Positions 23,005-57,266 of a stretch of DNA of 64,000 nt are shown here, piece after piece; position 1 is the first letter of the stretch, and each line of letters begins with the position of its first letter. Location: positions 42,792-106,791 of the forward strand of contig CAWGED010000006.1 in NCBI GenBank assembly GCA_963821525.1. The letters are read 5' to 3'. This DNA comes from an uncultured Gemmatimonadales bacterium (GTDB lineage Bacteria > Gemmatimonadota > Gemmatimonadetes > Gemmatimonadales > GWC2-71-9). The notes beneath the pieces were generated by a model. That model was given only the letters and a program-made list of their open reading frames with translations. It had not been told where the DNA came from and searched no databases. Position numbers and translations under genes: made by a program.

Positions 23005-23005
23005 C

Positions 23006-24787: not shown

Positions 24788-24832
24788 TGCAGGTGTCAGT
24801 GATCAGGTGTCAGGGAAAGCGGCCTCCCTTCT

Positions 24833-26681: not shown

Positions 26682-26830
26682 CTCCTGGTGCTGTCATTGC
26701 GAGGGAGCGAAGCGACCGAAGCAATCTCACCCACTCTCCTGGTCAGGAACGCGGGAGAGATTGCCGCGCCCTTCGCTCGCGATGACACTTACTGGGCCTC
26801 GCAATGACGAAGAGCATCGAGTTCTGATCC

Positions 26831-27421: not shown

Positions 27422-27541
27422 GGACCTGAGGCCGCCGTCCCCATACGGCGCTGGCTCGGCTGACGAGAGAATGACATTCTTAGGGGTGCTCCGGAAGCTG
27501 GACAGGCGACAACGGTGAGGGGAACCGTGACGAGCGCGGCC

Positions 27542-28636: not shown

Positions 28637-28841
28637 CCACCTGCCTCTCTGGTCTCCGGGGATCCTCCGGACACCCGGCGTGGGACAGCGGTCCCACGAA
28701 AATCGCCTCTCGGTCGAAAACTCAAACCTGATCTGGGACCGTGGCTTCATGTCTGGCCCGGTGCCCTGGCGTACGTTGTGCCCGCGCTCGGAATTGGCCG
28801 ACGCGCGAGGAGAACGTCACGCTCGACTGGAGATTCCGACC

Positions 28842-30904: not shown

Positions 30905-31143
30905 AAGCCGGTTACTGGGGAAGATCCTAGCAAAAGCGGGAACAGGGGAACGGCGAACAGGAACGGGAGAAGCGAGAGCCTGTCCCGAGCAAGGCGAGGG
31001 AATCCAAATGCTTGGAAGTCGCGGAATCTTCGGCATCGGGATTCCTCGTCGCTTCGCTCCTCGGAATGACATCGGTCGTTCACTGAAGTGCGTAGAACCC
31101 GTTCCCCCTCGCCCGCTAGGGAGAGGGGGACAGGGGGTGAGGT

Positions 31144-32576: not shown

Positions 32577-33075
32577 GAAAACCTCCTGGAAAGGCGGCGG
32601 GGGGATACGGATTTGGGATACGGATCGGTGGTGCGGATCAGCCGCTGCGGATAGAGAAGTTCAGATCCGGCGAATCGGTGCGGCGGACCGCGGGTACGAT
32701 ATTCCAGATGACCCGGGCGGGCAGTGATGCGGATCTCTTGCGGGAATCTTTCGGCGTCGAGGCGGGGAGACGGGTGTGAGCGGTGTCTGCGGGAATCGTT
32801 CGGCGTCGAGGACCTGAACCCCCTGTCCCCCTTCCCGAATGGTGAAGGGGGAACCGTGTCCGAGAGCTCCTCGAATAAGTAATTTGCGAAGTTCGGTCAT
32901 TCCAGGGAGCGCAGCGAGAGCCTGTCCCGAGCGTAGCGAGGGGAAGCAATCTCACCCGCTATCCATGTCTACCTGCGCAGAGGGAAACGGGGGTCCTCGG
33001 TAGGGAGGCTGGGAGAGATTGCTTCGCCCCTGAGCGGGGCCTCGCAAGGACACCATGGGCGAGCCGCCGAGCCGT

Positions 33076-34590: not shown

Positions 34591-34605
34591 GGAGTCCTAC
34601 CGCAT

Positions 34606-35440
34606 CTAGATGTGAGGCAGCAGGTGGCCGATCGGAATGGCATACCCTGAATCCGGTTTGCACACGCCGATATGCCCCATACCCTTGACGACTTTGGGAC
34701 CCGGATCGGCGCAGAAGCGCACCGCTTTGACGATCCGATCCTTGTCTCCCATCACGACTACCTTCGCCTTGAGAGCCCCGAAACTGCCTTTCAGAAGCAG
34801 CGCATCGGTGTCCTTCTCCAGCTTCTTGAGAGCGTCGGAACCGGGTTCGAGATCGGACAGCACCTGGGCGAAGGCCTTGGCGCCAGACTTGGCCAGCGCA
34901 CCGAAACGGGCAGGGAATGCGTTCATGGCTTCATCGGCGAGCGGCAGTATCGCCGCCCCCGTATGCGCCGGGGCGAAGAGAACCAGGGCAATCCTGGAGA
35001 TCCAGGTCGCGGGAGGCGTGTCCATTGCAGCTTGAATCAGGGCCTCGCGGACCACGATGGCGCCGAGGGAATGCGCCACCAGGGTTATTGCCTGGTACTG
35101 GAAGAGCGGGTCGGAGCGACGCGCGTCCTTGAGCGTTGGCTGAATTGCCTGCGTGTAGGGATCGGTAGCGAGCGCCTGCAGAAACTCGAGAAACTGGGCG
35201 GCGCTGACTGGAGCCTGCTTGGTGAGCGAGTCGTATCCGTAGAAGAGAAGATCGCGGCCGGCACACTGGGGCTGCAGCGGTAGCAGACTGAGAGAACTGG
35301 TCCCAGGTCGCCTCGGCCTGGCCTCCAAACCCATGCACGAAGACGACCGCACGTCCTACCGGCTGTATAGCCCAGCGAACGCTGCTTTCATCGCCCCACG
35401 GGAGTGGTCGCGACTGGTAGTGGGTCTGCGCCTGCGTCAT
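34606..35440 (-). CDS. Alpha/beta hydrolase (esterase/lipase-like), frameshift near 35290
   Basis: VVFVHGFGG, FYGYDS, LVAHSLGAIV, LFAPAHTG and GHIGVCKP. Confidence 0.8.
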
Positions 35441-35468
35441 AGTAGGTCCTGCCAAGATACTAATGATG

Positions 35469-37955
35469 TCACCCAACCATCGCCCCCAACTCCCCACTCA
35501 GCCGCTTCCTCGGCTGCGCCGTTGACCCGATCACCGCCCCGATCGCCTCCTCCATGTTGGGCCACCGGTCCTTCGGGTCCTTGGCCAGCATCCTCATCAC
35601 CGCACTCTCCAGCTGCTCCGGCACCTCGGGCTGGCGCTGCCGAATCGGCTCGGGGATGGCGTGGAAATGTTCGAACATGATTGCCATGGCCGAGTCGCCC
35701 CGGAAGGGTTGGGTACCGGTCAGGGCCTCATAGGTCAGCACCCCGAGCGAATACTGATCGGAGGCGCCGGTGATTTCCTTCCCGGCACACTGCTCCGGGC
35801 TCATATACGCCGGAGTACCGATGACCGCACCGGTCCGCGTCTGGTTGTCAGACTCGGTCACCTTCGAAATCCCGAAGTCGGTGATCAGCGCTATGCCATC
35901 GCGATCGATGAGAATGTTCCCCGGCTTGATGTCGCGATGGACGATCCCGCGCCGGTGGGCATAGGCCAGCCCCTGTCCGACCTGTGACACCACCTCTGTG
36001 GTCATCGCCGAGTTGAGCCGCTTCTTGTCCCCGATCAGATGGCTGAGCGAGCGGCCATCCACGTACCGCATGACGAAGAACATGAGTCCTGCCATGTCCC
36101 GCACCGCGTAGATGGGCACGATGTTGGGATGCGAGAGCGACGCCATGACGCGAGCCTCGCGCTTGAACCGCTCGACGAATTCCTGATTCCTGAGGCCCGG
36201 CGCCAGGATCTTGATCGCCACTTTTCTGGCGAGCGCGATGTCATCGGCCAGGAACACGGTTCCCATTCCGCCGGTCCCGATCAGACCACGAATCTCGAAC
36301 TCGCCATTCAGGACATTGCGGAGATAGCCCTCCAGCTGCTCGGGACCGCCATACGGCCCAGACCAGCGGCGGGTCATCATGGTTGCGTCGGTCGGCGGAA
36401 CGGCCTCGGTGGGGAAGATGGTCCGATCGGGTGACGGTGAAGGGGCGGGTGGCGGCGGCGCCGACGCCATCATTGTCCGGTTCAACTCCGAGGCGGACTC
36501 GATCACCGGATCCTCCGCAAACCGGGGCACAATTCCCGTCCCCAGCACTTCGCGACCCTGGGCCACCTCCTGTCGGGCCTGGGGCGAAAGGACGAGCATC
36601 TTCCCCGACGGCACGAACAGTCCTGCCTCGAGCAGTACCAGAAGCAATCGATTGACGATCGCCTCGTGATCCCGTGGGCGGATGCCCGAAGCGATCTTCC
36701 CCAGCGCCGACATCGGACTCTGCGACGGTACCGAACCCCGTGCGACGATGTCTCGAGCCACGGTGAGCACGAAGCGCCGGCAGCGGTCCTGGTCTGCCGC
36801 CGCCATCGCGCCGAGTGGACTGCCCAGCATCTCGTCCTCATTGAGATGCAACAACTCGTGCAGGGCGCTGTAGAACTCGATCGTGGCGACGGCTTTGTCG
36901 TCGAACTTGAGCATCGCCTCTCCGTCTCCACCCACCTCCACCCGCTGTTCCATCAGCTCGACGCAGCGGCTGGGGAATCCCGGTACTCATGAGGGTCAGG
37001 TACCGGGTGAGCTTGGGAAAGAGTGCCAGTGCCTCGGGAGACGCAGCAGGCAGATCGATGTGCCGCTCCAGCAACTGGGGCAGCTCGTCCCAGAGACAGG
37101 TGAGATAGATGTCGAGGAACGGCGGAAGGTCCTCGTGCCCTGCCTGCCGCCTGGTCTGCCACCTGGCTCTCACCTGCGGTGGTGCCACGACGAGGAAGAT
37201 CGAATTCGGCGCCCGGAAGAGATTGGCCAGACTCGCCATCACATCCCAGTCCTCGATCCGATCGATCACCACCACGACCATCGGGGGCGTTCTCGCCGGC
37301 GACGTGGTAAAGAGCCGCCGCAACAGAGGAACCCGGGAGAGACGGGGAACTGCGGTGATGGAGCTGATCAGGCTGTCCCAGCTCGAGCAGCGTGCTCTGA
37401 ATGTCGTAGGGGAGGTAGACCGCCTTGCGGGTTTTCTCGACCGACTCCTGGGCGCCGAGCTCCAACTTAAGGGGGACATCTGATTCCGATTGTCGGGTTC
37501 AGGCTCCGCTTGCTGCCGACCGTCTCCTCGACTGCGCTGGTGGCCACTCCCTGGTAAGCCTCGAGCAGTCGCGTGTGGTGCGATTTGGAGAGATCCAGTT
37601 CCGAAGCTTCCACCATCCACTTCAGGTGCCAGAGGAGTCGCTTGGAAATCACCTCGGCACCAGCCAGGGCTTGGGCTCGAAGCTCGAGCACCACCAGATC
37701 CGTCTTCCGTCCCCGTTCGTCGGGCTGGGCGAGCAGGGCTTGCAGCTCGTACAGAATGCGGCGGACGAGGGAAGTCTTGCCGACGCCGGAGTAGCCGCTG
37801 ATCAGGAACCGGCCGGTCCCATGCTCCAGCAGATAATTGATGACCCGCTGGCGGGGCCCGTCCCGCCCGAGTAGCGCGTCAGGATCGGCGCCATCGAGCG
37901 GTTCCAGGTTGAACGGGATGTCGGTGAGAGGGAAACTGACCCCGCCCTTACTCAT
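35469..37955 (-). CDS. P-loop NTPase (STAND/AAA-like) fused to a C-terminal Ser/Thr protein kinase; frameshifts near 37475, 37375 and 36975
   Basis: Walker A ISGYSGVGKTS, Walker B-like VVVVID, a GIP motif and a Pro-rich linker, then kinase motifs IGTGGMG, VAIK, HRDIKPGN, DFG and [10 protein letters not shown]. The fusion is inferred from frame repair. Confidence 0.7.
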
Positions 37956-38751
37956 GCAAGGGACGCCTGCGTGAAAGCTTAGCCAACAGTGGGGTTTGGC
38001 CTCGGCGAGGGCAAGATGGGCGGCCAAGGGGTAAACGGTGAACAGTGAACCGTGAACGGGGCCGGTCGAAGGCCGCACTCACTTGTTAAGGCCGCTGCGG
38101 CGGGAAGAAGCAGTCTCCTTGGGTTGCTTTCGGAGAGGGATTGCTTCGGTCGCTACGTTCTCCTGCAATGACCGAGCCGTGGAGCCGCCGAGATGCCGGA
38201 ACCAGCATCACGTGGCATGAAGTGCCCAAAATTTGGTCGAGGCATAGTCCTTTGTGCCGAGATCACAGGGTGTGGGTTCTTGACGCGCCAAACCCATTCC
38301 ATACCTTAGCGCGGTCGATCTGGTCCCAGATGGAAATGGGGCCATTGTTGTCATAGAGCCGGGTATTGTAGAGGGTCTGAAGGTCGATGGTAAACACGTC
38401 GAAGTTAGGGCCGGTGGGTGTGCAATGCCGTGTGGCAGGAGATCCGCGCGACCTCCGGCGAAGCCTGTCACCGAACCCTCACCTCTCTCCTCGCCTCACT
38501 CTCCGCTGCACTTTCCTCATCTCGAGTTGCGGACATCACTCCCGCAACAATCCCCAACACACAAGCCGTACTGTCGTCCGCGATCATCGCGTCGGCGCTC
38601 GCTGGTCTCCCATTGTAACGATCTCCCCGCCCCGCGACTTCCGCTTCCATAAGAGCGCCCTGCGGTATCCGCTAAGCATCGTAACCCAGCACGGCCAATT
38701 GCCTCGCCCACCCACCAGAGCGACGCGGCAGCGGACACAAGGAGTTCTCCC

Positions 38752-40390
38752 ATGAAGAAACGCTCGTCCCGGGCCCGTGCGAAGTCGTCAGGACTCGCAG
38801 CGTTCCACGATGCCAAGGAGCGGCTCTCTGCTCAGTACGTCCGCTCTTCCACGCTGACGGCGGCCGAGTCGCTTCGCAGGACGGGGCCAGACCCCGCTGC
38901 GAATGTGGTGGGCGTGGGTATTGGCGAGAAAGTCACCCGGGGGCGAGCTGACCGGGCGTCGTGCCCTGAAAATCCTGGTGCGTCACAAGCTTCCGCTCGA
39001 AGCAATCGAGGAGCGGTTTAAGCTGCCGACGACTGTCGATGGGCTGCCAGTAGACGTCGAGGAGGTGGGACTCATCGTGGCATTCGCGCCGCCGATCCCC
39101 AACCCCAGGACGCGGCTGCGGCCCGCACCGCCGGGCAGTTCCGTCGGGTTCAAGGATCCCAAAAACAAGTTCAAGATGGCGGGCACCTTCGGGGCTCTGG
39201 TGCGCAACTCCTCGGGTGTGTTCATCCTCAGCAACAACCATGTACTTGCCGATGAGAACAAGTTGGCCCTTCAATCCCCCATCTTCCAGCCTGGCTTGCT
39301 CGACGGTGGCAACACGTCCAAGGACAAAATCGCGGCACTCACTCGCAGGATTCCTCTGCGCAAGACCAAAAACAGCGTCGATTGCGCGATTGCCAAGGTT
39401 GTCGCCGTGGCCCAGGTCACGTCCGCCATAATCAAGATCGGGCCGCCTACCGGTGTAAAGAATGCCGCCTTGAAGATGAACGTGCACAAGTTCGGTCGGA
39501 CCACGAGCTACACCACGGGCAGCGTCACCAGTATCGATACCGATGTGAACGTGCAGTACGATTCGGGTGTGCTGGCCTTCAAAAGCCAAGATCATGATCA
39601 AGGGAGATGGAGGACGTCCCTTCAGCGCGGCCGGGGATTCTGGCTCGCTGATTCTGGAACGCTCCTCTGGTAAGGCGGTCGGGCTGCTCTTCGCCGGTGG
39701 CACGACGGCGACCTTTGGCAATCACATCCAGGATGTACTACGCGCCCTCGGTGTGACCCTCATCCAAGGTCAGTTTCCGGCACCTTCACCCAGCGCGAGT
39801 GCCTCTCCCAGCGCCAGCGCCTCTGCGAGCGCCAGCCCCTCGGCCAGTGCAAGTCCATCGGCCAGTGCGAGCCCGTCTGCCAGCGCGAGTCCGTCTGCCA
39901 GCGCGAGTCCCTCGGCCAGTGCGAGTCCGTCGGCCAGTGCGAGTCCGTCGGCCAGTGCGAGTCCGTCCGCCAGATCGTCGCCAGCAGTCCGTCCGCCAGC
40001 GCGAGCCCGTCCGCCAGCGCGAGCGCGTCGGCTAGCCCCAGTGCTTCGCCCAGTGCCAGCCCGTCGCCCAGCGCGAGTCCATCTCCCAGCGGCAGTCGGG
40101 CGACGAAGTCCCACCCACATCGGCCTCACGTCAAACGCCATGCCCACCTCCCCCACATGCACCATCCTCACCCGCACAGTCCGATCGCCGAGGAAATCAT
40201 CGAGCGGGCGGTGACGGAAATGGTGGGACCGGCCCCTGCTCCACAGGCCGAGCGTGCGGCTGAAGCCCAGGTCGAGGGAGTTGTCGCCGAGGTGATAAAG
40301 GAAGTTGCGGAGTCGAAGCGGACCTTGCCCCGCATGCGGGGTCGAGTCAGCCGGAAAACCAGGAAGGCCCGATCGAAAGGCCGGGGATAA
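38752..40390 (+). CDS. Trypsin-like (Nal1-like) serine protease 3 with (ASPS)n, His/Pro and basic C-terminal tail; frameshifts near 38940, 39590 and 39980
   Basis: NVVGVGIGEK..LPVDVEEVG N-module; triad LSNNHVL, VDCAIAK and GDSGSLI. The tail in ORF 40157-40390 ends in a TAATG overlap with the next gene. Confidence 0.75.
39787..40095 (+). repeat. Coding Ala-Ser-Pro-Ser low-complexity repeat
   Basis: Repeated gccagtgcgagtccgtcg-type 18-nt units encoding ASASPS with synonymous variation. Confidence 0.85.
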
Positions 40391-41235
40391 TGGGGCGGCC
40401 GCGGTCGGCGTATCTCCTCTGTACTCTCCCCCGGTCGGGGAGCTGGATGCTGGCGCATGGGCTCCGAGTGACCGGAGTCGCCGGCCGGCCGGAAGAGTAC
40501 TTCTGGGAGGATCTGCGTCCGGCCTACGCCAAGCATTGGGGACTCTCACCTGAGGTGTCGCAAAGACGGTTCCTTCGCGCCGCCATTCGTGCCGGCACTA
40601 CTCCGAATGGGATGTTCGGGGCGAAGGTGCATTGGTTCGAGTTGCAGCAACTGCTATGGCGCCTGCGCCAGAACTCCGGAGCCCAGAGGCGCTCGGCCCG
40701 TCGGCTGATTAACGAGGCACTCGACAAGCCAAGTTTCGTGCGACTGGTCCGGGAGGATAAGGTCCGCCAAGCACTCTCATATCACAAAGCGCTGGTCTCC
40801 GGAGAATGGTGGAGGGCTGGGCAATCCCACCCTGTAAATAGAGCGGTGGGCTCCGTCGATTTCCGGCTGGTCTGGGAACTCGAATCCCTGCTCGCCAGCC
40901 ACGAACGACTGTGGACCCGATTCTTCGCGCAACACCGGATCACCCCGCTCGTCGTGACTTATGAGGAGCTATGCGTCAACTACCGGGAGGTACTGCGGCG
41001 CGTGCTCACCTTCATCGGAGTGGGACGCATCGATTCGGCAGACCTCGGCGAACCGGTGCTCGAGCAACAGGCCGATGAAGACACGGAGCTGTTGGTACAT
41101 GACTACATCACGACGCAGCGATCGGCCGTTCCGCTCCGAACCGAGCCTAACGGCGCGGGGCGGGTACTCCAGGGGGCATCGACAAACGGGCATCGGGTCG
41201 ATGGCCGGGCCTACTCCTTGGCTACCGGGTCGTGA
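40390..41235 (+). CDS. Stf0-family sulfotransferase
   Basis: YLLCTLPRSGSW (PAPS-binding), GRPEEYF, TPNGMFGAK, REDKVRQALS and VTYEEL. Confidence 0.88.
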   Translation: MGRPRSAYLLCTLPRSGSWMLAHGLRVTGVAGRPEEYFWEDLRPAYAKHWGLSPEVSQRRFLRAAIRAGTTPNGMFGAKVHWFELQQLLWRLRQNSGAQRRSARRLINEALDKPSFVRLVREDKVRQALSYHKALVSGEWWRAGQSHPVNRAVGSVDFRLVWELESLLASHERLWTRFFAQHRITPLVVTYEELCVNYREVLRRVLTFIGVGRIDSADLGEPVLEQQADEDTELLVHDYITTQRSAVPLRTEPNGAGRVLQGASTNGHRVDGRAYSLATGS

Positions 41236-42006
41236 CAACGCCGCGGTTCGACACGCAGCGTCCTGCGTCGGTTCTCGCCAATCGCCGGTGGGTAAAAAAC
41301 GTCTTTCCCTATACCTACTACACCGCGAGCAACGTGTTCACGCCCAGGATCTACCAGATGTTCGAGTCGGCGTTCCGCGAGCACACGAACGGGCGGCAGC
41401 AGTACATGGACAAGCACGATACCGTACGGGGTGACTCTGACTCGAGGCGTGGACGGGCCGCTGGGCTTCTTTGCGTCCCGCGGATGGTACCGAGATGATC
41501 GCCCGGCTGGTCGGCATTCAAGGCCACCCCACACCTGAACATCGGACTCCACCATCACGAGCCCGGCGAGCGAGAACGGCTTCGTGCATAACGACCTGAA
41601 TCCGGGCTGGTTCGTCGACTACGAGAGCGACCAGGGAACCGCGCTCGCGCAACCTGGATTTGTGCAGCTACACCACCGGTGAGGCGACGAAAGCGGAGAT
41701 CAAGCCCGAGAAGGACCGTCCGGGCCGCGGCATTGCTGTTCATGTTGCCAACCCACCCTGGAAGCCGGGGATGGCGGAGAGACTCGGCATCTATCGTCAG
41801 GGGAGTGATCGATCCGGAACGTCCACTCGAGCGCTGTCCCGCCGATCAACAACTCGATTCTCCTGTTCGAGTGCACTCCCTGGTCGTTCCATAGCTTCAT
41901 TCAGAACCGGCGCACCGCGCGCAACAGTCTCGTCATGTGGTGGCACCGCGAGCCGAGCGACGTGGTGCGTCGCTGGGGTGCCGATTCAATCGTCGATTAT
42001 CGGTGA
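41232..42006 (+). CDS. 2OG-Fe(II) oxygenase, several frameshifts
   Basis: GTGA overlap. After frame repair it reads HHHEPG..VHNDLNPGWF (HxD), FECTPWSFHSF (distal His) and RNSLVMWWH. Confidence 0.7.
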
Positions 42007-42805
42007 GGCTTAGGGATGCGGACCGGACCAAGCGGGTGTGCATGCTCACCGGTGCGGGGGGCACGTTGGGGAGCGCGTTCTGCAGACTGTACGGAGAACG
42101 TTACGATATCGCGCCGTGTACCGGACGCGGCCACCTCCGGTGGCGTCGCAGCAGCGCTGGTTCATGGACCCTGTGACGGGGCGCCGGGTCAGGAGGGCGA
42201 ACCGGCCGATGGTCTTCGAAATCCAGGCCGATCTGTCGCTGGCGCACGAAATCGATCGCGTGGTGGACGTGACACTGGCGCGGTTCGGCCGAATCGACTT
42301 GGTGGTCAATGCCGCAGCCCTCGTGAAGGACGCGCCGTTCCTCGATCCGCCCGGTTCGAGGAGGCGCTGGGGAGCAGCTGCTGGTGAACAGCCTCGTGCC
42401 GCACCGGCTCACGGCCAATATCTCGATGAAGTTCTGGCGGGGCCGCCGGGCGGCCAACCTGCGCGCAACCGGAACGTCGTCAACGTATCGAGCGTGTCCG
42501 GCTTATTCATTTATCCTCGCTCGCGGCCGCGGCGCGCCTACGGCGCCTCCAAGGCAGTCATGAACTTTCTTTCCTGTCAGATGGCGAGCGAATGCAGGCG
42601 TTTCGGTGTGCGGTCAACGTGGTCGCGCCGACCACGTTCCCGAAGCTCGGTCCCGACCAAGCGGGTGGCCGCGGCCATCGTCGGACTCGACCGACGCAGG
42701 ATGAACGGCCGGATCCTGGTGATCGCGCAGACAGGCAGCCGCTACGCGCCTGACAGCGCCACCGTGGCGGAGCGCTCGAAGCGTCTCCCCCGAGCTGGAG
42801 ACTGA
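42003..42805 (+). CDS. SDR-family oxidoreductase, frameshifted
   Basis: GTGA overlap; LTGAGGTLG, FGRIDLVVNAA, VNVSS and YGASK. Confidence 0.8.
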
Positions 42806-42809
42806 CAAC

Positions 42810-43070
42810 ATGGTCGTCATTGGCCGCGGGCACAACGCATCAAGGAGAAGCATTCAGAACAGCTCATGTCACGTCCGGGCAGTATCGGGAGTCGGCGTGG
42901 AACAGGATGCTGATGGGACGCCGGTAGTTGTGATCCACACCGATCCCCGGGCAGCGGCGCACCTGGCCGACCTGCCGTCCGAGCTCGAAGGTGTGCCGGT
43001 GCGAATCGTCGAGGACGTGCCGTTCCGCAAGCAGGGCCGCGGCGCGGGCGAGGCAGCTGAACAGTTCATC
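42810..43070 (+). CDS. Small stand-alone protein resembling the N-terminal module of the Nal1-like proteases
   Basis: After frame repair it reads IKEKHSEQLMSRPGVSGVGVEQ..LPSELEGVPVRIVED, paralleling HLPNVHSVGIG..IPASFEGIPTDVI. The end coordinate is approximate. Confidence 0.55.
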
Positions 43071-43245
43071 GGCAGGTACATAGACCAGTCAACACTTCAC
43101 CGCGCCCCTTGCCCGTGCCTCGGGCGGCTGGCCGCGAAGCGTGGGAGGTGATCCAGTCGATGACAGCATAGACCCCGGAGCTGCGAACAAGAAGGCCTCG
43201 GCCTGACGAGCTCGCTCGGCGAGAGGTCGCGCGCTGCGACCGCGC

Positions 43246-44774
43246 ATGGAACCGCCCTCGCCTCCAGGGCCACCGGGAGACCCACCGACGCGGCGCCGAC
43301 ACCACCCGGACCACCGCCCGGTCCGCCGCCGGGACCACCACCCGGTCCGCCTCCGGGACCACCGCCCGGTCCGCCTCCGGGACCACCACCCGGTCCACCT
43401 CCAGGACCGCCGCCACCTCCACCACCGGGACCGCCGCCACCCTCCACCACCGCCGCCGCCACCACCACCGCCGCCGCCACCACCGGGACCGAGTGGCAGC
43501 GCAGGCCCGAGTGGAAGCGCTGGTCCAAGCGGAGGCCCGAGCGGGAGCGCAGGACCCAGCGGTAGTCCGAGCGGGAGCGCAGGCCCCAGCGGCAGTCCGA
43601 GCGGGAGCGCAGGACCGAGCGGGAGCCCGAGTGGGAGCCCGAGTGGGAGTCCGAGTGCGAGCCCGAGTGCCAGTCCCAGTGCGAGCCCGAGTGCCAGTCC
43701 CAGCGCAAGTTCGACTCCCAGTCCCAGTGCGACTCCGACACCGAGCCCGACGGCTACTCCAACGCCCAGTCCAACGCCAACGCCGGTGCCGCATCCGCAT
43801 CCGCACCCGCATCCGCATCCGCATCCACATCCACACCCGCACCCGCACCCGCATCCGCATCCCCACCCGCACGCGGCATCCACATCCGCACCCGCACGGG
43901 CATCCACATCCGCACCCGCACGGGCACCCACATCCCCACCCGCACGGGCATCCACATCCGCACCCGCACGGGCACCCACATCCCCACCCGCACGGGCATC
44001 CACATCCGCACCCGCACGGGCATCCGCACCCGCACGGGCATCCGCATCCGCACGGGCATCCGCATCCGCACGGGCATCCACATCCCCACCCGCACGGGCA
44101 TCCGCATCCCCACCCGCACGGGCACCCACATCCCCACCCGCACGGGCATCCGCATCCCCACCCGCACGGGCATCCGCATTCCCCACCCGCACGGGCATCC
44201 GCATCCCCACCCGCACGGGCACCCACATCCCCACCCGCACGGGCACCCACATCCCCACCCGCACGGGCACCCGCACCCCCGCCCGCATCCGCACGTGCAC
44301 CCGCATTTCCCACGTGCGCAGGGCCGTCCCTATCGGTGGATACGCCGCCGTAGAAGGCTCCGTATGCACCCTCGCGCTCGGTTCCGCCGATACGCGTACC
44401 GTTGGGCCGGGTGGATGCCGAGGAGGGTCAGGCGGATGCTCGCACGGCGGAGACGTGCGATCCGGCGTCGCTTTCCGCCGCCCTGGATTCCGCCGATTCG
44501 ATGGCGTCGGCGGCGGAGGCCACACCGCCTGGCTCACCCACCGCGGCGTCGTCGGCCGCATCGGAGGCTGGGGGCTCACGTTCATCCGCCCCTTCGCAGG
44601 AGACGGCGTCGCCCTATCGCCGTCCGCGTTCACCCACGCCGCCGGGTTCACCCGCGCCGCCGGGTCCACCCGCGCCGCCGCGTGAGGGCTCGGGCACGGC
44701 GTCTCAGGCGTCGCCTGCGCGTTCGGCGGGCAGTACGCCGGGCCGCCCGCAGTAGGAGGAGGTCTCGTAGGTGA
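43246..44774 (+). CDS. Low-complexity block-repeat protein, about 500 aa: (GPPP)n, poly-Pro, (GPSGSA)n, (SPSA)n, (TP)n, (HP)n, (HPHPHG)n, Arg-rich tail
   Basis: Reconstructed across ORFs 43246-44685, 43493-44353 and 44295-44774. Repeat variation is synonymous in the + frames (ccN, agY, caY), and the gene is co-oriented with its neighbours. Confidence 0.6.
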
Positions 44775-44866
44775 GATGAGTTGAAGTAACCGGGCGCCTC
44801 GGGCCGAGGTCGTATTCCTGACCTGGGCTCGGGTCGCTCGGGTGTACCTCCAATTGCGAACACTCA

Positions 44867-45775
44867 ATGGTGAAAAGTCCTTCGCCTCGCCCGGTTGACC
44901 TGAGCGTGATCGTGGTCAGCCACAATGAAGGAGAGCTCCTCGAGCGCACTGTCCGCAGCCTGATCGCAACTCTGCCGGAGCAGGGCACCGAGGTCATCAT
45001 CGTGGATGATCAGTCCGACGACGACAGTACTGTTTTCCTCAAAAGGTTGGATCGATCATCGGTGCGGCTGATCAGGTCACCCGAGCGCCTCGGCATTTCA
45101 GCAGCTCGGAACCTGGGAGCGAGGTCAAGTTGCGGTGAGGTAATCGTCTTCAGCGACGCCCACGTCCACGTGTACCCGGGTTGGGCAGAGCCACTCTGGC
45201 TCACGGCTCTGAAGCCGTTTGTGGGCGCTGTGGCGCCGGAGGTGCATTCGATGCACGAGCCTCATATCAAGGGGTACGGCTTCACCTGGCGTGATCCGTC
45301 GCTGAAGATGCACTGGCTGCGCCGCGGGGGCACGGCACCCTACCCGGTGCCTTTTCTGTGCGGCTGCTTCGTTGCCTTGAGCCGCACTCTGTTCGAAATG
45401 ACCGGGGGCTTCGATGAGGGCCTGATCCGCTGGGGGTCGGAAGACGCTGAGCTCTCGCTTCGGCTTTGGCGCATGGGATACGAATGCCATGTAGTGCCTC
45501 GATCGTCCGTGGCGCACCTGTTTCGGAGGAGATTCCCTTACCAGGTGAGCTGGGAAGGGATCTTGCACAACACGCTCCGGCTTGCCACCGTCCACTTCGG
45601 ACCCAGGGCCCTCTCCCGCGTCATGCAGCACTGGAACGACCACGCCGCGCTTCCCCGGGCCACGGCGACGCTCTGCCTGAGCGACGTTTGGAGCCGACGC
45701 GAAAAAGTCCAGCGAACCTGCCGGTACCCCGACACTCGGGTCTTGGACCGCTTCCGAATCGAGGCGTTGTCGTGA
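44867..45775 (+). CDS. GT-A fold glycosyltransferase (GT2-like, with ppGalNAc-T-like motifs)
   Basis: IIVDDQSDD, LGISAARNLGA, FSDAH, GGFDEGLIRWGSEDAELSLRLW and VAHLFRRRFPY. Confidence 0.88.
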   Translation: MVKSPSPRPVDLSVIVVSHNEGELLERTVRSLIATLPEQGTEVIIVDDQSDDDSTVFLKRLDRSSVRLIRSPERLGISAARNLGARSSCGEVIVFSDAHVHVYPGWAEPLWLTALKPFVGAVAPEVHSMHEPHIKGYGFTWRDPSLKMHWLRRGGTAPYPVPFLCGCFVALSRTLFEMTGGFDEGLIRWGSEDAELSLRLWRMGYECHVVPRSSVAHLFRRRFPYQVSWEGILHNTLRLATVHFGPRALSRVMQHWNDHAALPRATATLCLSDVWSRREKVQRTCRYPDTRVLDRFRIEALS

Positions 45776-46644
45776 TGCCAGTAGCTTCAGCGTTCCATCT
45801 TCTTCCCGAGATCGGTGTTTACATCATCGGGATGCACCGGAGCGGCACCTCCGTTACGACCCGCCTGGTGAATCTCTATGGCGTCCAGCTTTGTCTCGAC
45901 AACGATCTGTACGCCGGTGTCAAGGGAAATGAGCGCGGTCTCTGGAAGTCAAAATCGCTGGTCCGATTCAATGATTCGCTGCTGCACCAACTGGGGGCGG
46001 AGTGGTGGTGTCCACCGCGGCCCAACCGGGTGTGGCCCCAGCATCCCAGTCTTGAGCAGCCCCTCTCCTTGGGACGCGCTCTATTCCAACGTCTACATCC
46101 GACGAAGCAATGGGTGTGGAAGGATCCTCGAACCTGTATCACGCTGCCCTTCTGGCTCCGCGCATTGGAGGCGAAACCTGTCGCGGTGTTCGTGCTGCGG
46201 CATCCGCTGGAAATCGCGGCCTCGCTGCTCGCGCGCAACAAGTTCGACCTTGAGCTTTCGCTAGCGCTGTGGGAACGGTACCTGCAACACGCCTTGCCTC
46301 ACCTGCACGGGTTGCCGGTCACGGTAGTGCGGTTCGAGGCGCTCCTGAACGACCCGGTTGGCTGCTCTGCCTCCATCGCCGCTTTTCTCGGGCGCCACGG
46401 AGTCGCCGTCGGCCCGTCGCCCGATCCCTCTGCGATACGTGGCTTCGTGGAGCCCTCCCTGCGGCACCACACTACTGAATGGGACAGGTCATCGAGCGGG
46501 AGCCTATCCTCATCGCAACAAGCACTTCATGAGAGGCTGCTCGCTGCCGCCGGCGATCATGACCGGTTCGATGCGGCCTCCCTGCCGGTCGAAACCGTGA
46601 AGACCGACACCCTCTTCGCCGGACTGCAGCACCGGTACCACTGA
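45775..46644 (+). CDS. Sulfotransferase-family protein
   Basis: TGATG coupling; IIGMHRSGTS, WVWKDPR, RHPLEIAASL and VRFEALL. Confidence 0.85.
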   Translation: MPVASAFHLLPEIGVYIIGMHRSGTSVTTRLVNLYGVQLCLDNDLYAGVKGNERGLWKSKSLVRFNDSLLHQLGAEWWCPPRPNRVWPQHPSLEQPLSLGRALFQRLHPTKQWVWKDPRTCITLPFWLRALEAKPVAVFVLRHPLEIAASLLARNKFDLELSLALWERYLQHALPHLHGLPVTVVRFEALLNDPVGCSASIAAFLGRHGVAVGPSPDPSAIRGFVEPSLRHHTTEWDRSSSGSLSSSQQALHERLLAAAGDHDRFDAASLPVETVKTDTLFAGLQHRYH

Positions 46645-46679
46645 GGCCTCGGAGCACGGGCCCGATCCGACGGCTCGAG

Positions 46680-47696
46680 GTGTTGCGGGCCCAGTACGAG
46701 ACTCGGCGCCCGTCAGCGTCGAGAGGGGTAGATGCCACGTTGGTCGTTATCACTAGAAATGAAGGGCAGGCCCTGCGCCATACTATCGATCGCCTACTCC
46801 AAACCGCACCAGCCTCCACCGAGGTTGTGGTCGTCGACGACGGGTCGACCGATGGTAGTATCGACTTCCTCACCGCCAGCCATTCCCCGATTCGGCTGGT
46901 GCGCTCCAGTCGACAGCTGGGGATCGCACGGGCCAGGAATCTCGGCGTGCGAGAGGGCAGAGGCGAGCTCATCGTGTTCTGCGACGCCCATCTGGCGCCC
47001 GCGAAGGATTGGCTCCGCCCCCTCGCCGAGGCGGTTCGTTCACCCGGCGCCGGTGCGGCAGGTCCCTGCCTGGCTTCCTACACCAAACGCAGCGTCAAAG
47101 TGTATGGACTCCGTTTCGTGGACGACGTGCTCAACGTAAGGTGGCTTCCTCCGCAGCGCACCGAGCCGTATCCGGTTCCTCTTCTCGCAGGATGCGTTCT
47201 GGCAATCAGGCGGGAAGTCTTCAATGAGATCGGTGGCTTCGACGACGGCATGTTCGGCTACGGGTCGGAAGACCTGGAGTTGTGCCTGCGGCTCTGGCGC
47301 TCGGGACTCGACTGCCTGGTCGTACCGGAATCCGAGGTCGCACATCGCTTCCGGGGTGCGGGAACCCGGCACATTGATCAGGAGCTGAGCCTCTTCAACC
47401 TGCTCCGGATGGGCATCCTGCATCTCGGGGAGCAACGCCTCATTTCGTTTCTGAACGCGCTGCGACGGAACGCTGCCTTTCCCGAAGCCATGGCACGAGT
47501 GCTCTCGGGAGACACCTTTCGTCGGCGGGCGCAGCTGGGCGGAATGATGCAGTTCGATGATGCGTGGTTCTTTGAACGATTCGCGACTCCGATGCCCGGC
47601 TCGGTGGAATCCAGCAACGGCAAGCATCGCGAGTTCAGCCACAACGGCGCGAAAGTCCGCAGCCGAGGAGGTTCCGATGGGGTACCGGCATCTTAA
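46680..47696 (+). CDS. Second GT-A fold glycosyltransferase, paralog of 44867-45775
   Basis: VVDDGSTD, LGIARARNLG, FCDAH, GGFDDGMFGYGSEDLELCLRLW and VAHRFR. Confidence 0.88.
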   Translation: MLRAQYETRRPSASRGVDATLVVITRNEGQALRHTIDRLLQTAPASTEVVVVDDGSTDGSIDFLTASHSPIRLVRSSRQLGIARARNLGVREGRGELIVFCDAHLAPAKDWLRPLAEAVRSPGAGAAGPCLASYTKRSVKVYGLRFVDDVLNVRWLPPQRTEPYPVPLLAGCVLAIRREVFNEIGGFDDGMFGYGSEDLELCLRLWRSGLDCLVVPESEVAHRFRGAGTRHIDQELSLFNLLRMGILHLGEQRLISFLNALRRNAAFPEAMARVLSGDTFRRRAQLGGMMQFDDAWFFERFATPMPGSVESSNGKHREFSHNGAKVRSRGGSDGVPAS

Positions 47697-48540
47697 CCGG
47701 AATGCGTGGTCATATCTCGTCGAGCGCCGGGAGGAATCAACCCGCCCCTATGGCCCGGCCGAGTTCAGTCAGGCCCAATACTGGCTGGACTCGAGCGACT
47801 GGATTCCATGGGAGGAGGTGAACCGGGTGCTCTGCCTCGCCTCGGGTGGCGGCCAGCAGGGTCCGCTCTTCGCATCCCTCGGGCTCGACGTAACCGTGTT
47901 CGACCTGAACCCGGATCAGCTGCGAACGGACCAACGCACCGCCCGGCGACATGGATTGTCGCTGCACTGTGTTGAAGGAGACATGATGGACCTCTCCCAG
48001 CTCCATGGCGGCGACTTCGACCTCGTCTATCAACCGATCTCCTCTCTCTACGTGCCCGACATCCGGAAGGTCTACCGGGAGATTTACCAGGTGCTGAGAC
48101 CCGGGGGCTACTACTGGGTGGAGCACTGGAATCCGGTGCAGATGCAGCTGTCAGAATCGAAACCCTGGGACGGGGAAGCGTACCGAGTGGTGTACCAGCA
48201 GGACACCGGTCAGCCGCTGGCGTGGGAGATGTCGACCAAGAAAGGCCAGTCGGCCATCTCGTGGAACTACATCCATTCCCTGGAGGCCTTGATCGGAGGG
48301 ATCTGTGAAGCTGGAATGGTGATTCTGCAATTCGGAGAGCGCCATGATGGCAACCCGTCGGCTCGCCCCGGCAGCAACGCTCACATGTCGGCCCACATTC
48401 CCAGTTTCTACTCGGTCTTCGCGGTGAAACCGGGGGCGCAGCCTCGGCGCCGGAAGCCGCGGCCCGGGGCGTTGCGATCAGGGAAGCCGGGTCGCGCGGG
48501 AGGCGAAACGGGGCCTAACAGGTCACGAAGTGCCGGCTAA
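47677..48540 (+). CDS. Class I SAM-dependent methyltransferase
   Basis: VLCLASGGGQQG, VTVFD, GDMMDL, FDLV and VLRPGG; GAGGAG RBS upstream. Confidence 0.88.
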   Translation: MGYRHLNRNAWSYLVERREESTRPYGPAEFSQAQYWLDSSDWIPWEEVNRVLCLASGGGQQGPLFASLGLDVTVFDLNPDQLRTDQRTARRHGLSLHCVEGDMMDLSQLHGGDFDLVYQPISSLYVPDIRKVYREIYQVLRPGGYYWVEHWNPVQMQLSESKPWDGEAYRVVYQQDTGQPLAWEMSTKKGQSAISWNYIHSLEALIGGICEAGMVILQFGERHDGNPSARPGSNAHMSAHIPSFYSVFAVKPGAQPRRRKPRPGALRSGKPGRAGGETGPNRSRSAG

Positions 48541-49324
48541 CCTTCCGTGAAACCGCCTCGCGGCGCTGCGGGGTCGTGATACCATAGCCGAACGCCTGCG
48601 CCAGGCGCTCGATTCCCGTCTCCGCCAGCTCAGCGAGAGCCTGGGGACGAGTCTCCCAGCGCTTGAAATAGGCTTCATTGACGTCCGGGCGAAGTCCCTC
48701 GATGGAGAGTGGCCCCTCCAATCCCAGAAACTCCAGGACCCTTCCGAGCACCTCAGCGGGCCTCTCCACCAGATCCTCATACCGCACGAGGACCACCTTG
48801 CGGAGGGCCGGAGCGTCCTCCAGGAGCAGGCGATGGCAGTGTGCCCAGTGCTGGACCAGCGAAGCGAGACTCGACTTGCTCCATTTGAGTGTCGCCTCGG
48901 CAACAGCAATCGGGTGCCGGATGATCAAGACGAAGTGAGCTGGCGGGAAGAGCGCTTGGAGCAATCGGGTCCGGAGCAGGTTGGGTGGCGACTTCTCCAG
49001 GAGAACCGGGCGAGATGAATCCCAGTAGGGCAGCCAGGATGCCAGGAGCCGGTCCCGATTGCCGGGAGTACTGAGCGGTGATTCTTCTGTCAGATGCGCG
49101 GCTGGCGAGAATCCAAAGCGTCCCGGACCACCGATCGCGAGCGCGCTGGGAAGAACGTCCTGCAAGTGCTGGCCCTCATCTTCGGGAACCCTGGATCTGC
49201 TGAGGCCGCTGACCGCCGCATGGGAGGCCAACCCGCGAGACAGCATGCTGGTGCCGCTGCGGTGAAGCCCCCCGACAAACACGAATCGGTGGCGACGGAC
49301 GAACCCGCCATCCAGGCGCAACAC
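48515..49324 (-). CDS. Sulfotransferase-family protein
   Basis: FVGGLHRSGTS, EDEGQHLQ, LEKSPPN, IRHP and VRYEDL. Confidence 0.85.
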   Translation of the reverse strand: MLRLDGGFVRRHRFVFVGGLHRSGTSMLSRGLASHAAVSGLSRSRVPEDEGQHLQDVLPSALAIGGPGRFGFSPAAHLTEESPLSTPGNRDRLLASWLPYWDSSRPVLLEKSPPNLLRTRLLQALFPPAHFVLIIRHPIAVAEATLKWSKSSLASLVQHWAHCHRLLLEDAPALRKVVLVRYEDLVERPAEVLGRVLEFLGLEGPLSIEGLRPDVNEAYFKRWETRPQALAELAETGIERLAQAFGYGITTPQRREAVSRKVSRHFVTC

Positions 49325-50395
49325 CTAGACGCCTCCCGAAGTGGAGTAGTGAACAAAGAGTCGCCGGAAGTAACGCCGGTAGGCTCCTGCCACCGCTGGC
49401 GAGCGGATGAAAAGCACGTCTTCGTTGTTGGTCTCGGCGCTGGTGGAAAAGTTGTAGCTCCCCGTGATTACCGTGTGATCGTCGAGAATGAAAGTCTTCA
49501 GGTGGTGGAAATCGTTGAGTCCCCCCGGCAGAGTCATGAAAGGATGGGAGCGGACTCCGACAAACCGTTGATCGCCCAGATACCACCAGTACAGGCGGGG
49601 ATCGGGTGATTTCACGAACGCGAGGGCGTCCTTCATGCCGTTGACGTCGAAGATGCCACGGATATCGGCGCCAGGATCCGCGAAACGGGTGAGAGCCTCG
49701 CCGATTTCCGGGTCGCTCAGCTCGAATGCCATCATCCGCACTTTGGTTGCTCGTCCCAGGGCGCTGGCGATTGCGTTCTCGACTTTGGTTCCTGCCGTGG
49801 GTTCGAAGAAGGGCCACAGCCAGGCCCCGGGGACATCGCCAATCCGTCGCCGGCTCAAGGCGATTGGCAGAGCGAGCGCCTGGGTCGGCTCGGCCCAGAT
49901 CAGGTCGAAGGCCTGCCCATATCTGCGGGCCAGCTGTTGCGAGTGGACGACGATCCAGTTGTTGTCCTGAAGCTGGAGAGCGCCAGTGGTAAAGTTGCCG
50001 GTTCCGGTCCAGATCGACTTTCGGTCGCGGATGAGGAATTTGTGGTGAAGGTAGGTCTTCGAGGTGCGTCGGATTTTGCGCGAATGCTGGAGGAGGCCGA
50101 ACTCATCGAGGGCTGCCTCGGTACCGTTAGGCTTTGGATCGGCCCCGGGCTTGAGCTTCTCGGGCTCCCCAGCATCGAAGGCCACTCGGACGCGGCACCC
50201 TTCTCGCATCTTCCGGCGCAGGGCGGCGAGAACTTCAAGGTCGCGCAGGTCGTAGATGGCGCAGTCAATCGACCGCTGGGTGGCTGCCACGAAGTCAACC
50301 AGGCGACTGGTCACATCGCCGGTCAAACCGGCCCGCTTCGAGGTGAAGAAGATCCGGATCCCGGGAACGGCGAAGGTATAAAGCGGCTGGCGCAT
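49325..50395 (-). CDS. Phospholipase D-like protein with two HKD motifs
   Basis: HHKFLIRD..WTGTGNFT and HLKTFILD..ITGSYNFS..NNE. Confidence 0.85.
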   Translation of the reverse strand: MRQPLYTFAVPGIRIFFTSKRAGLTGDVTSRLVDFVAATQRSIDCAIYDLRDLEVLAALRRKMREGCRVRVAFDAGEPEKLKPGADPKPNGTEAALDEFGLLQHSRKIRRTSKTYLHHKFLIRDRKSIWTGTGNFTTGALQLQDNNWIVVHSQQLARRYGQAFDLIWAEPTQALALPIALSRRRIGDVPGAWLWPFFEPTAGTKVENAIASALGRATKVRMMAFELSDPEIGEALTRFADPGADIRGIFDVNGMKDALAFVKSPDPRLYWWYLGDQRFVGVRSHPFMTLPGGLNDFHHLKTFILDDHTVITGSYNFSTSAETNNEDVLFIRSPAVAGAYRRYFRRLFVHYSTSGGV

Positions 50396-50518
50396 TGATG
50401 CCGTCCACGATTGGTGCTTGGCGGTAATCTACTGCGAGTACCCGTGCGTTCCAGATGATCGGCCGCTCGCAACGATTGGCACATCCCCCAGTGGGCAAAG
50501 GGAAGAAGGGTGAGGTAT

Positions 50519-50549
50519 TATTGACTTATCAGTCAATATACGCTACTTT
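50519..50549 (+). promoter_or_regulatory. Sigma70-like promoter overlapped by a putative TetR operator
   Basis: TTGACT-N17-TACTTT; perfect inverted repeat tattgact-tatc-agtcaata (50519-50538). A related ttgac-N6-ttcaa site lies at 51152-51167. Confidence 0.65.
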
Positions 50550-50555
50550 CTCCCC

Positions 50556-51131
50556 ATGCCTCGCCCCCGTGAATTCGACCCCGACCTCGTCCTCGACCGC
50601 GCCGTCGAGCTCTTCTGGGCCAAAGGCTATGAGGGCACCTCGATCAGCGACCTCGAGGAACACCTCGGCATGGGGAGGCAGAGCCTCTACGGAGCATTCG
50701 GAGACAAGCACGAGTTGTATGTGAAGGCGATGGACCGCTACGCCTCCTCCCAGTCGTGGACCAGGAAGGATCTGCTCAAGCCCGACGCCGGGGTGGAGGA
50801 GATCAGGGAGTATTTCAAGGGACTCATTTCCGCGGTAACGCAGGAGCCAAGGCGGTCCTGCATGCTGATCAACGCCGCCATCGAGGGCGATTGTGAGCAC
50901 CCGAAAGTGGCGGGGCGCTGCACCGACAATCAGCAGAACCTGACCCGCGCCTTTCGCCACGCCCTCGAGGGTGCAATTGCCAAAGGGCAGCTGGACCGGA
51001 AGACCGATACCAATGCCCTGGCCCTGGCGCTGGTCAGCCAGTCCTTCGGCCTCAACGTGATGGCGCGGAACGGGGCGTCCCCGGCGACCCTGGCCAAGGT
51101 GGCCGAAAGCATCATGCAGGTCTTCAAGTAG
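50556..51131 (+). CDS. TetR/AcrR-family transcriptional regulator
   Basis: MPRPREFD..AVELFWAKGYEGTSISDL...GMGRQSLYGAFGDK. Confidence 0.93.
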   Translation: MPRPREFDPDLVLDRAVELFWAKGYEGTSISDLEEHLGMGRQSLYGAFGDKHELYVKAMDRYASSQSWTRKDLLKPDAGVEEIREYFKGLISAVTQEPRRSCMLINAAIEGDCEHPKVAGRCTDNQQNLTRAFRHALEGAIAKGQLDRKTDTNALALALVSQSFGLNVMARNGASPATLAKVAESIMQVFK

Positions 51132-56945: not shown

Positions 56946-57266
56946 GGGCGAACGCGCCTTCAACCTAATCCCCGACACCTGACCCCTGACACCTTTACCG
57001 AGGTCCGCGTGTCACGGTGGATGAGGTACTAGGGATCAGGTGTCAGTAAATCCTCGTCGCTTCGCCATTCGGACCGATCACGTTCTCTTCTCCCACCCCA
57101 CAGGCTGGTTCCCCTTCCCAATAGGAAGGGGGACAGGGGGTTGGTATAAGCAAAGGGGGACGGGGTTTACGTAACGAAGAGCAGGGGTAGGTGGCCCTAT
57201 CCTTGCGGGTTCACTTCACAGTTTTCAGCTTCAGTCGGACTCTCCAACCTCTTCTGTGGCAATCAC

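Follow-up and report, generated by a model that had tools for sequence, protein, structure and literature searches.

Can bacteria make a counterpart of the mucins and extensins of eukaryotes, that is, a ribosomally encoded repeat protein that is hydroxylated, O-glycosylated and sulfated by enzymes of neighbouring genes? Three such modifications, mucin-type O-glycosylation, the glycosylation of hydroxyproline and the sulfation of glycans, count as hallmarks of eukaryotes. The question is raised by a gene island of an uncultured Gemmatimonadales bacterium (genome of 4.33 Mb in 19 contigs, 81% complete, 64% G+C), which lies in the final 64 kb of contig C6; this 64-kb stretch of DNA was analysed as a whole and is called the window below. 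The island sets two glycosyltransferases (GTs), three sulfotransferases (STs), a methyltransferase (MT) and a 2-oxoglutarate (2OG)-Fe(II) oxygenase beside long stretches of Pro-rich repeat DNA. The families of these enzymes and the adjacency of the genes suggest that a cytoplasmic cassette of GT27-like glycosyltransferases, sulfotransferases, a methyltransferase and an oxygenase resembling prolyl 4-hydroxylase (P4H) acts on the adjacent Pro/Ser/Thr-rich polypeptides, a reading to which we give somewhat less than an even chance.

The island as a unit

The limits of the island were set by blastn of the corresponding locus of a genome of the same genus, G003 (locus L139, contig C15), against the window. 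The two are 94-95% identical over 35472-38016 and once more from 50517 on; in between, G003 has 4.9 kb of unrelated DNA, including a 1073-aa FG-GAP/TSP3-like gene, in place of the 12.5 kb at 38017-50516. The originally noted span, 38752-50395, falls within this variable block. Because unrelated DNA replaces 38017-50516 between like flanks in G003, the repeat genes and the enzyme genes count as one unit, and the 11 genes of the island form a single variable, co-inherited block. No flanking direct repeats and no mobility genes were found at its borders; the island was most likely acquired horizontally and is most likely strain-specific. The enzymes listed in the original prediction (two GTs, three STs, the 2OG oxygenase, the MT, a short-chain dehydrogenase/reductase (SDR) and a phospholipase D (PLD)-like protein) are all present by Pfam, the oxygenase by way of an intact homolog.

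Glycosyltransferases related to polypeptide GalNAc-transferases

The first glycosyltransferase, GT1 (44867-45775, plus strand, 302 aa), is a soluble GT-A enzyme of a GT27-like family with a DxH motif; the second, GT2 (46680-47696, plus strand, 338 aa), is assigned by the same GT2/Glyco_transf_7C Pfam matches, and the two are 41% identical, in line with the predicted paralogy. At E 1e-3 or better, at least 445 proteins close to GT1 in length are related to it; many are 45-78% identical, and almost all are metagenomic, soil and rhizosphere included. In an alignment of 29 sequences that includes both window paralogs, D97 and H99 (DxH), E192, D193 and E195 (in a WGxEDxE context), H217, F219 and R220 are invariant, and E192, D193, E195, H217, F219 and R220 align with their counterparts in polypeptide N-acetylgalactosaminyltransferases (ppGalNAc-transferases) in HMMER alignments. 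When the family profile was compared with the PDB (48 distinct sequences matched), the 15 best matches were all ppGalNAc-transferases, with E values from 1.7e-44 to 4.7e-36; chondroitin synthase comes after them in the ranking (E 2e-24). A survey of GT-A folds describes DxH in place of DxD as specific to GT27 and GT60, which are polypeptide Ser/Thr O-glycosyltransferases (PMC7185993). The placement of both window enzymes in a GT27/GT60-like DxH clade of polypeptide O-glycosyltransferases is thus supported at the level of motif and profile.

Both proteins end after the catalytic domain, with no Ricin_B match and no hydrophobic N-terminus or membrane anchor. Because the lectin domain and the membrane anchor are missing, we set these predicted GT27-like enzymes outside GT27 proper; they are presumably cytoplasmic. 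Two multi-GT loci, L013 and L015, which score 194-207 bits on the family hidden Markov model (HMM), are more distant and carry no island genes.

Frame breaks and their correction

Several island genes are read here with single bases corrected, and the grounds for doing so come from the whole window. Genes are split between frames throughout it and not just in the island: a UPF0182 gene is in two pieces (2-1786 and 1458-2327), as is a DUF6603 gene (12790-13869 and 13800-15071), and an AAA_16-kinase gene (35472-38078) is in three; inside the island, the protease, 2OG oxygenase and SDR genes are each spread over two to three window frames. We compared 38300-51000 with short-read contigs from four public rhizosphere runs that are 95-99% alike to the window; cover was thin, or consisted only of 36-54-nt unitigs, over 41692-43387 and the inner repeats. 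The short-read contigs lack single bases that the window has at 39588, 41424, 41494, 41517, 41562, 41656, 41705 and 44179, and they carry one additional base after each of 38315, 46640 and 48483; the surplus window bases lie outside homopolymers. Because contigs of near-identical strains omit or add precisely these single bases, the frame breaks of the window are read as assembly errors, mostly insertions, rather than as pseudogenes. Completeness of 81% in just 19 contigs would be typical of an indel-rich long-read assembly, and gene calling in this genome requires frameshift-tolerant reading.

The multiple frame breaks could also be those of a decaying relic, in which the protease, oxygenase and SDR genes would be true pseudogenes. 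We consider this very improbable: the contigs of all four runs are free of the extra bases, an intact oxygenase 95% identical to that of the window exists in another metagenome, the same kind of split affects conserved genes in other parts of the window, and the kinase that is in pieces here is one 828-aa open reading frame (ORF) in G003.

Coupling of glycosyltransferase, sulfotransferase and methyltransferase

Addition of the base found after 46640 in a short-read contig (X1) joins a Sulfotransfer_3 sulfotransferase (45772-46644) to GT2 (46680-47696) in a single 641-codon ST-GT2 protein (45772-47696, plus strand; both domains by Pfam). This fusion is collinear with a 619-aa ST-GT fusion on a 12.3-kb metagenome contig (L097), to which it is 49% identical over 601 residues. 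The contig has the same order of genes as the island, GT, ST-GT, MT, ST (minus strand) and PLD (minus strand), at 50-75% identity. Among the relatives of GT1 of near-equal length, 5 of the 120 listed have a Stf0 domain; among 49 longer relatives, 27 carry Stf0 and/or Sulfotransfer_3 domains, and one of these (P0199) a methyltransferase as well. The other 22 include one protein with a tubulin-tyrosine-ligase (TTL) domain, one with an FHA domain and several multi-GT proteins. The TTL-like and FHA proteins (P0195 and P0209) are single GT1-family members fused to modules that are both protein-directed. Because of the fusions, a functional coupling of the predicted GT, sulfotransferase and methyltransferase activities is supported.

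The remaining partners in this coupling are separate genes. A class I S-adenosylmethionine-dependent methyltransferase is encoded at about 47677-48540 (plus strand, Pfam), a missing base after 48483 affecting its C-terminus. A second Sulfotransfer_3 protein, ST3b, lies on the minus strand at 48515-49324 (Pfam, E 9e-23) and weakly matches CurM-ST and TPST (E 1e-5 to 3e-3). The third sulfotransferase (40390-41235, plus strand) belongs to the Stf0 family of enzymes using 3'-phosphoadenosine 5'-phosphosulfate (PAPS) (PF09037, E 5.6e-36, 124.7 bits). An APS kinase for PAPS supply is encoded elsewhere in the genome (C5:58693-59133, 182 bits).

A putative prolyl hydroxylase

Directly after the Stf0 gene, at 41232-42009 on the plus strand, lies the gene of the OGFOD1/P4H-like 2OG-Fe(II) oxygenase, whose window copy is broken by at least six single-base insertions, so that no more than pieces of it, in three frames, can be seen (Pfam E 0.16 at best). 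Six deletions supported by the short-read contigs restore the frame, and the product then equals, within a few residues, an intact 255-aa oxygenase from another metagenome (P0160, 95% identical). P0160 matches the Pfam families 2OG-FeII_Oxy_4 (PF13661, E 6.3e-8) and Oxy_3 (PF13640, E 5.4e-6) at 33.5 and 27.7 bits, above the cut-off of 27; of the HxD...H iron motif, HND and a downstream His are visible. Its nearest relatives in the PDB are OGFOD1 (E 2e-5), which is a protein prolyl hydroxylase, and, only faintly, P4H-alpha (E 0.14). These matches show the predicted oxygenase to belong to the OGFOD1/P4H branch.

The repeat DNA

Two stretches of the island are repetitive. Of the ten tandem-repeat loci that reach 150 bp or more in the 4.33-Mb genome, three lie in the island. 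The original prediction saw in them two Ser/Thr/Pro-repeat proteins, a claim that stands in part. The supposed (ASPS)n protein is the C-terminal tail of a protease; the second repeat region looks coding, and is open in all six frames over 43296-44305.

The protease gene (38752-40214, plus strand) encodes a trypsin-fold serine protease of Nal1/DegQ-like type and occupies three window frames (38752-39021, 38903-39673 and 39567-40214); its similarities are weak (Nal1_C, E 0.028; DegQ, E 0.035). A first change of frame probably lies near 38950; with base 39588 removed, as in a short-read contig (X2), one frame of 436 codons runs from 38903, with His, Asp and Ser (GDSGS) motifs followed by a C-terminal tail of about eleven SPSASA units. 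The tail is encoded by an 18-nt tandem repeat (39762-40115, plus strand) in which synonymous diversity is highest in plus frame 0. In each of the four runs, a contig that follows the window to the right of position 39964 departs from it on the left, with 30 unrelated letters that are identical in all four; the sampled strains therefore differ from the window in the 3' part of the protease repeat array or at its junction.

The second region is occupied by a candidate low-complexity repeat gene at 43246-44774 on the plus strand, in frames 0, 1, 2 and 0 in turn, with a questionable start at ATG 43246 and possible stops at 44353, 44685, 44755 and 44774. Its frame was chosen section by section by comparing codon entropy with amino-acid entropy, the best frame being that in which nucleotide variation is most nearly synonymous. 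By this measure, the protease tail (39790-40091) is best read in plus frame 0 as (SPSASA)n; 43296-43440 in plus frame 0 as (GPPP)n (37 Pro and 10 Gly); 43441-43496 in plus frame 1 as polyproline, a minus-strand Gly frame scoring marginally higher (1.17 vs 1.13); 43497-43760 in plus frame 1 as GPSGSA, SPSA and TPSP units; 43880-44178 in plus frame 2 as (PH)n/(HPHPHPHG)n, with His, Pro and Gly codons only (27 CAC, 22 CAT, 23 CCG, 8 CCA, 6 CCC and 13 GGG); and 44180-44305 in plus frame 0 with the same (HP)n pattern. The drift from frame 0 to 1 to 2 to 0 would be as expected from single extra bases, matching the insertion errors elsewhere in the window, and a broken repeat unit near 43872-43876 shows one extra base. 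The changes of frame are placed provisionally near 43290, 43441 and 43875. Read in this way, the gene likely encodes a plus-strand protein of roughly 370-500 residues rich in Pro, Gly, Ser, Ala, Thr and His. The (GPPP)n and (TP)n blocks lie in different window frames, and the long 3' array is most likely (HP)n and not of the Ser/Thr/Pro kind.

That this DNA is translated at all as a Pro/Ser/Thr protein has to be weighed against another account, in which the repeats at 43.3-44.3 kb are read in another frame or strand, as (HP)n throughout or as a Gly/Cys-rich minus-strand product, or are untranslated, so that their adjacency to the enzymes is incidental. We judge this unlikely. The periods of the tandem repeats in 39790-40091 and 43300-44680 are all multiples of 3 (6, 12, 15, 18, 24, 30, 36, 48, 54, 60 and 72) across seven repeat families, and synonymous diversity is highest in plus frames everywhere except in the short polyproline section. 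The SPSA array at 43606-43765 (family D2) matches the coding tail of the protease in the same orientation and the same codon register. The region is oriented with the operon, between a small ORF and GT1, and the +1 drift agrees with the insertion errors found elsewhere; a strain variant (L096, 98% identical) differs within the repeats by an in-frame 18-bp indel. The account of incidental adjacency is in turn favoured by the six open frames and by codon usage: log-odds from a training set of 351 long ORFs recognise real genes but single out no frame in the repeats or in the 44306-44774 tail, where none has a positive score. The (GPPP)n frame has no canonical start codon (ATG 43246 is in frame 1), and four strain single-nucleotide polymorphisms in 44537-44786 all fall on third positions of an Arg-rich frame 0.

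The minus strand of 43789-44305 reads (CGCPCGWG)n, with almost only synonymous variation, and the third codon positions of this frame coincide with those of the (HP)n frame; the (CCGCAC)n-type repeat at 100-250 of L097 likewise reads (CG)n or CGCPCGWG on the minus strand, a metallothionein-like pattern. A minus-strand (CGCPCGWG)n protein, which would speak for the account of incidental adjacency, was dropped as improbable; in L097 the Cys-Gly frame has no start codon that gives 60 aa.

Repeat-protein genes beside the glycosyltransferase elsewhere

If the repeat proteins are acceptors, related glycosyltransferases should have such genes beside them, as the original prediction proposed to check. 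Besides the window, the context could be read at three loci only: L097 and the GT loci of two genomes, G351 and G304, which are two species of one genus. The contig of L097 ends 339 bp upstream of its GT; in this stretch, which is rich in G+C, there is a short (HP)/(SAPAP)-like low-complexity piece. BLASTP of its (HP)n frame against the tail of the window gave no alignment. In G351 and G304 the glycosyltransferase is 38-39% identical to that of the island and scores 269 bits on the family HMM, with DxH present in the G304 homolog; the beginning of its gene overlaps the stop codon of an upstream gene, which encodes an HHH-domain protein with a Thr/Pro run and a four-fold tandem repeat. Thus both readable independent lineages (two of two) have a gene for a Pro-rich low-complexity protein directly upstream of the GT, and the check comes out in favour as far as these contexts extend, that of L097 being cut off by the contig end.

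The GT loci of G351 (L131, C55:50000-69999) and G304 (L132, C196) resemble contractile injection systems (CIS), with Baseplate_J, Tail_P2_I/NHL, a collagen-repeat protein, a CIS tape measure and WHD-AAA; the Thr/Pro-rich tandem-repeat HHH-domain protein may be a glycosylated fibre or tail component. A contractile-injection locus like that of G351 was considered for the window and rejected, only the GTs being common to both.

What the enzymes may act on

In the reading that we prefer, with the cassette acting on the adjacent polypeptides, the oxygenase would hydroxylate prolines in the (GPPP)n/polyproline part of the repeat protein, and the DxH glycosyltransferases would add sugars to Ser or Thr (or hydroxyproline) of the repeat-gene product, perhaps also to the (SPSASA)n tail of the protease itself. 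The sulfotransferases and the methyltransferase would then decorate those sugars, all in the cytoplasm. The further proposal of the original prediction, that the co-encoded protease processes a structural polymer, is speculative; the protease itself bears one of the repeats. Carried further, this would mean that bacteria make a ribosomally encoded mucin/extensin-like polymer, a Pro/Ser/Thr/His-rich repeat protein that is hydroxylated, O-glycosylated and then sulfated and methylated, and that the GT-sulfotransferase family is the prokaryotic counterpart, and possibly the forerunner, of eukaryotic mucin-type O-glycosylation. We offer this extension tentatively, expecting that it could well prove wrong.

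In another account, these enzymes would make an oligosaccharide bearing sulfate and methyl groups, built not on a protein but on a lipid, a free sugar or a small molecule derived from a peptide, and the repeat genes would serve another function of the island, for example the protease system; this we hold to be a serious possibility, if on balance a doubtful one. MftF glycosylates a small peptide-derived cofactor, mycofactocin, and is the best NCBIfam model for both GTs (TIGR03965; 117.3 and 120.5 bits, E 8e-34 and 8e-35). The Stf0 family is named after a sulfotransferase of a free disaccharide. Relatives of the GTs occur as multi-GT fusions of 770-1055 aa, which look like oligosaccharide builders; the fusions of GT, ST and MT require no protein partner, and the core shared with L097 (GT, ST-GT, MT, ST and PLD) can be read without any repeat gene. 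The HKD/PLD-like enzyme would suit lipid or phosphodiester chemistry.

These likenesses to enzymes of small acceptors have their limits. The MftF model, with a cut-off of 280 bits, is missed by far and matched just at profile positions 68-286 of 467, and the Stf0 protein, at 109.9 bits, stays well below the cut-off of 400 for the trehalose 2-sulfotransferase equivalog (NF047724). A non-protein acceptor is also at odds with the PDB ranking, headed by polypeptide transferases, and with the DxH motif. In the island, the Pfam scan of ORFs (33-57 kb) brought up no gene for a lipid carrier, an acyltransferase or a maturase of ribosomally synthesized and post-translationally modified peptides (RiPPs), and, as the original prediction had it, no flippase, polymerase or ABC exporter, nor an initiating phosphoglycosyl transferase. 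Finally, the repeat genes belong to the same variable block as the enzymes, and in a second lineage the GT is coupled to the gene of a Thr/Pro-rich protein.

Several points besides the resemblance to MftF and the multi-GT relatives weigh against action on the repeat proteins. The acceptor is deduced solely from family resemblance and gene adjacency. The frame of the repeat gene requires three to four corrections, one of them with weak read support (base 44179 is missing from three 54-nt short-read contigs), and its lack of a start codon in the (GPPP)n frame and of a positive codon score in the tail has been noted above. The longest array, probably (HP)n, is devoid of Ser and Thr. None of the 49 longer relatives is a fusion of a GT to an oxygenase, and the ORFs scanned yielded neither an exporter nor a signal peptide or sortase signal. 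The sample of contexts elsewhere is small, at two lineages, and in the upstream stretch of L097 no frame stands out clearly by codon score.

Comparison with known systems

The closest likeness of the island GTs is to the eukaryotic mucin-type ppGalNAc-transferases (GT27), with which they share a GT-A domain with DxH, WGxEDxE and a C-terminal His. The setting is mucin-like too, in that Pro/Ser/Thr-rich tandem repeats adjoin the enzyme genes, and sulfated glycans are a feature of mucins. Unlike GT27 enzymes, the island GTs are soluble proteins of about 300 aa with neither a ricin-type lectin domain nor a membrane anchor, and the sulfotransferases beside them are of the bacterial Stf0 and Sulfotransfer_3 kinds, which in this family are often fused to the GT.

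A second parallel is the Skp1 pathway of Dictyostelium and Toxoplasma, in which a cytoplasmic P4H acts first and the DxH-type Gnt1 (GT60) follows (PMC3515798); GT60 and GT27 are described as akin, both having DxH (PMC7185993). The island likewise has a 2OG prolyl-hydroxylase-like enzyme beside a DxH-type GT. The Skp1 pathway modifies one proline of one folded protein, for oxygen sensing, whereas the candidate acceptors of the island are long repeats; moreover, the island adds sulfotransferases and a methyltransferase, and its oxygenase is nearest to OGFOD1, with P4H a faint match.

In Gram-positive bacteria, serine-rich repeat adhesins offer a case of a ribosomally made Ser-rich repeat protein that is glycosylated in the cytoplasm by enzymes of adjacent genes. 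Those systems use GT4-type GtfA/GtfB and the export genes SecA2/SecY2, and are not known to involve sulfation or hydroxylation; none of the SecA2/SecY2/Asp or GT4 GtfA/B families was found in the ORFs scanned over 33-57 kb. The mycofactocin system is similar in that MftF works with a sugar methyltransferase, as the island GT is paired with a methyltransferase; it acts on a small cofactor and not on a repeat protein, and the island has no mycofactocin precursor or radical-SAM gene.

A literature search at the level of records found no bacterial cluster in which a GT27-like transferase and PAPS sulfotransferases occur together with a methyltransferase, a P4H-like oxygenase and repeat genes. Already known are the cytoplasmic O-glycosylation of Ser-rich repeats in bacteria and prolyl hydroxylation followed by a DxH GT in protists; what seems new is the combination of enzymes and repeat genes in the island. 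If the enzymes do act on the repeat proteins, the island would provide a simple means of producing defined sulfated glycoproteins, would assign a function to the large unannotated family of GT-sulfotransferase fusions, with its at least 445 relatives in soil and rhizosphere metagenomes, and would offer a handle on the origin of the polypeptide GalNAc-transferase fold. Should the acceptor be something other than a protein, the GT-ST-MT module would nonetheless be a sign that rhizosphere bacteria make a sulfated, methylated glycoconjugate not yet described.

Distribution of the family

The close GT family is missing from the genomes of 40 relatives of the source organism, where the best match is 33% identical. 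Two of 400 further genomes of the same class match the GT at 1e-40; none of 400 genomes of the same phylum does at 1e-45, nor any of the 401 genomes in the class of an Acidimicrobiales metagenome-assembled genome at 1e-50. A scan of genome contigs with generic patterns derived from the family alignment gave no family member, the best among the matches listed being 34% identical. No match at 1e-10 was obtained in a phage collection, where one weak, unannotated match reached 2e-8. Scanning metagenome contigs with exact query peptides yielded 32 loci, of which only L096 (99%) and L097 (63%) are family members. A known defence system was considered for the island and set aside, PADLOC having returned only generic matches to DrmC-like, kinase and methyltransferase models.

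Other genes of the island and its neighbourhood

Between the oxygenase and the repeat region lie two further genes of the plus strand. The SDR gene, with an approximate start, runs from about 41960 to 42805 and was recognised by Pfam/NCBIfam in two to three frames, the TGxxxGxG motif lying in the piece at 41895-42176 and the rest in the pieces at 42038-42805 and 42430-42753. The small gene at 42810-43151 encodes 113 aa and has a codon log-likelihood ratio of +0.15 in its frame. Its 21 relatives range from 59 to 255 aa, and most are stand-alone proteins of 59-103 aa with a domain of about 75 aa. No Pfam family matches at its cut-off, the one sub-threshold match being to CaKB and on a relative (P0148). 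The domain bears a weak similarity to the N-terminal module of the protease, and an ORF far upstream, at 8664-9491, begins with the same small module as the protease. The possibility that the small ORF is the N-terminus of the repeat protein was dropped: its relatives stand alone and end just past the domain.

At the other end, on the minus strand (49325-50395), is the gene of the two-domain HKD (PLD-like) protein, which is Nuc/Zucchini/DrmC-like and syntenic in L097. The genes of the island had been predicted to be joined largely by overlapping stop and start codons; such overlaps exist at Stf0/2OG (GTGA) and at GT1/ST (GTGATG), the PLD gene abuts ST3b, and the small ORF begins 4 nt past the SDR stop, all of them tight junctions. 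Downstream, 6.6 kb from the island and outside the variable block, a gene of the TauE/SafE family (sulfite/organosulfonate exporters) at 57150-58262 is the only transporter gene seen.

Upstream, G003 also lacks a second block of about 10.7 kb (24803-35471), of which it has only a 170-bp piece (30933-31098). In the window this block encodes two HtrA-like proteases with PDZ domains, two LuxR-type regulators, an SBP56 selenium-binding-like protein, a subtilase, a hydrolase and a HATPase protein. Farther upstream, at 8000-25000, very large ORFs, such as that of 1074 aa at 19780-23001, follow one another without a Pfam match except for DUF6603, and 13815-24802 is conserved at 95% in G003.

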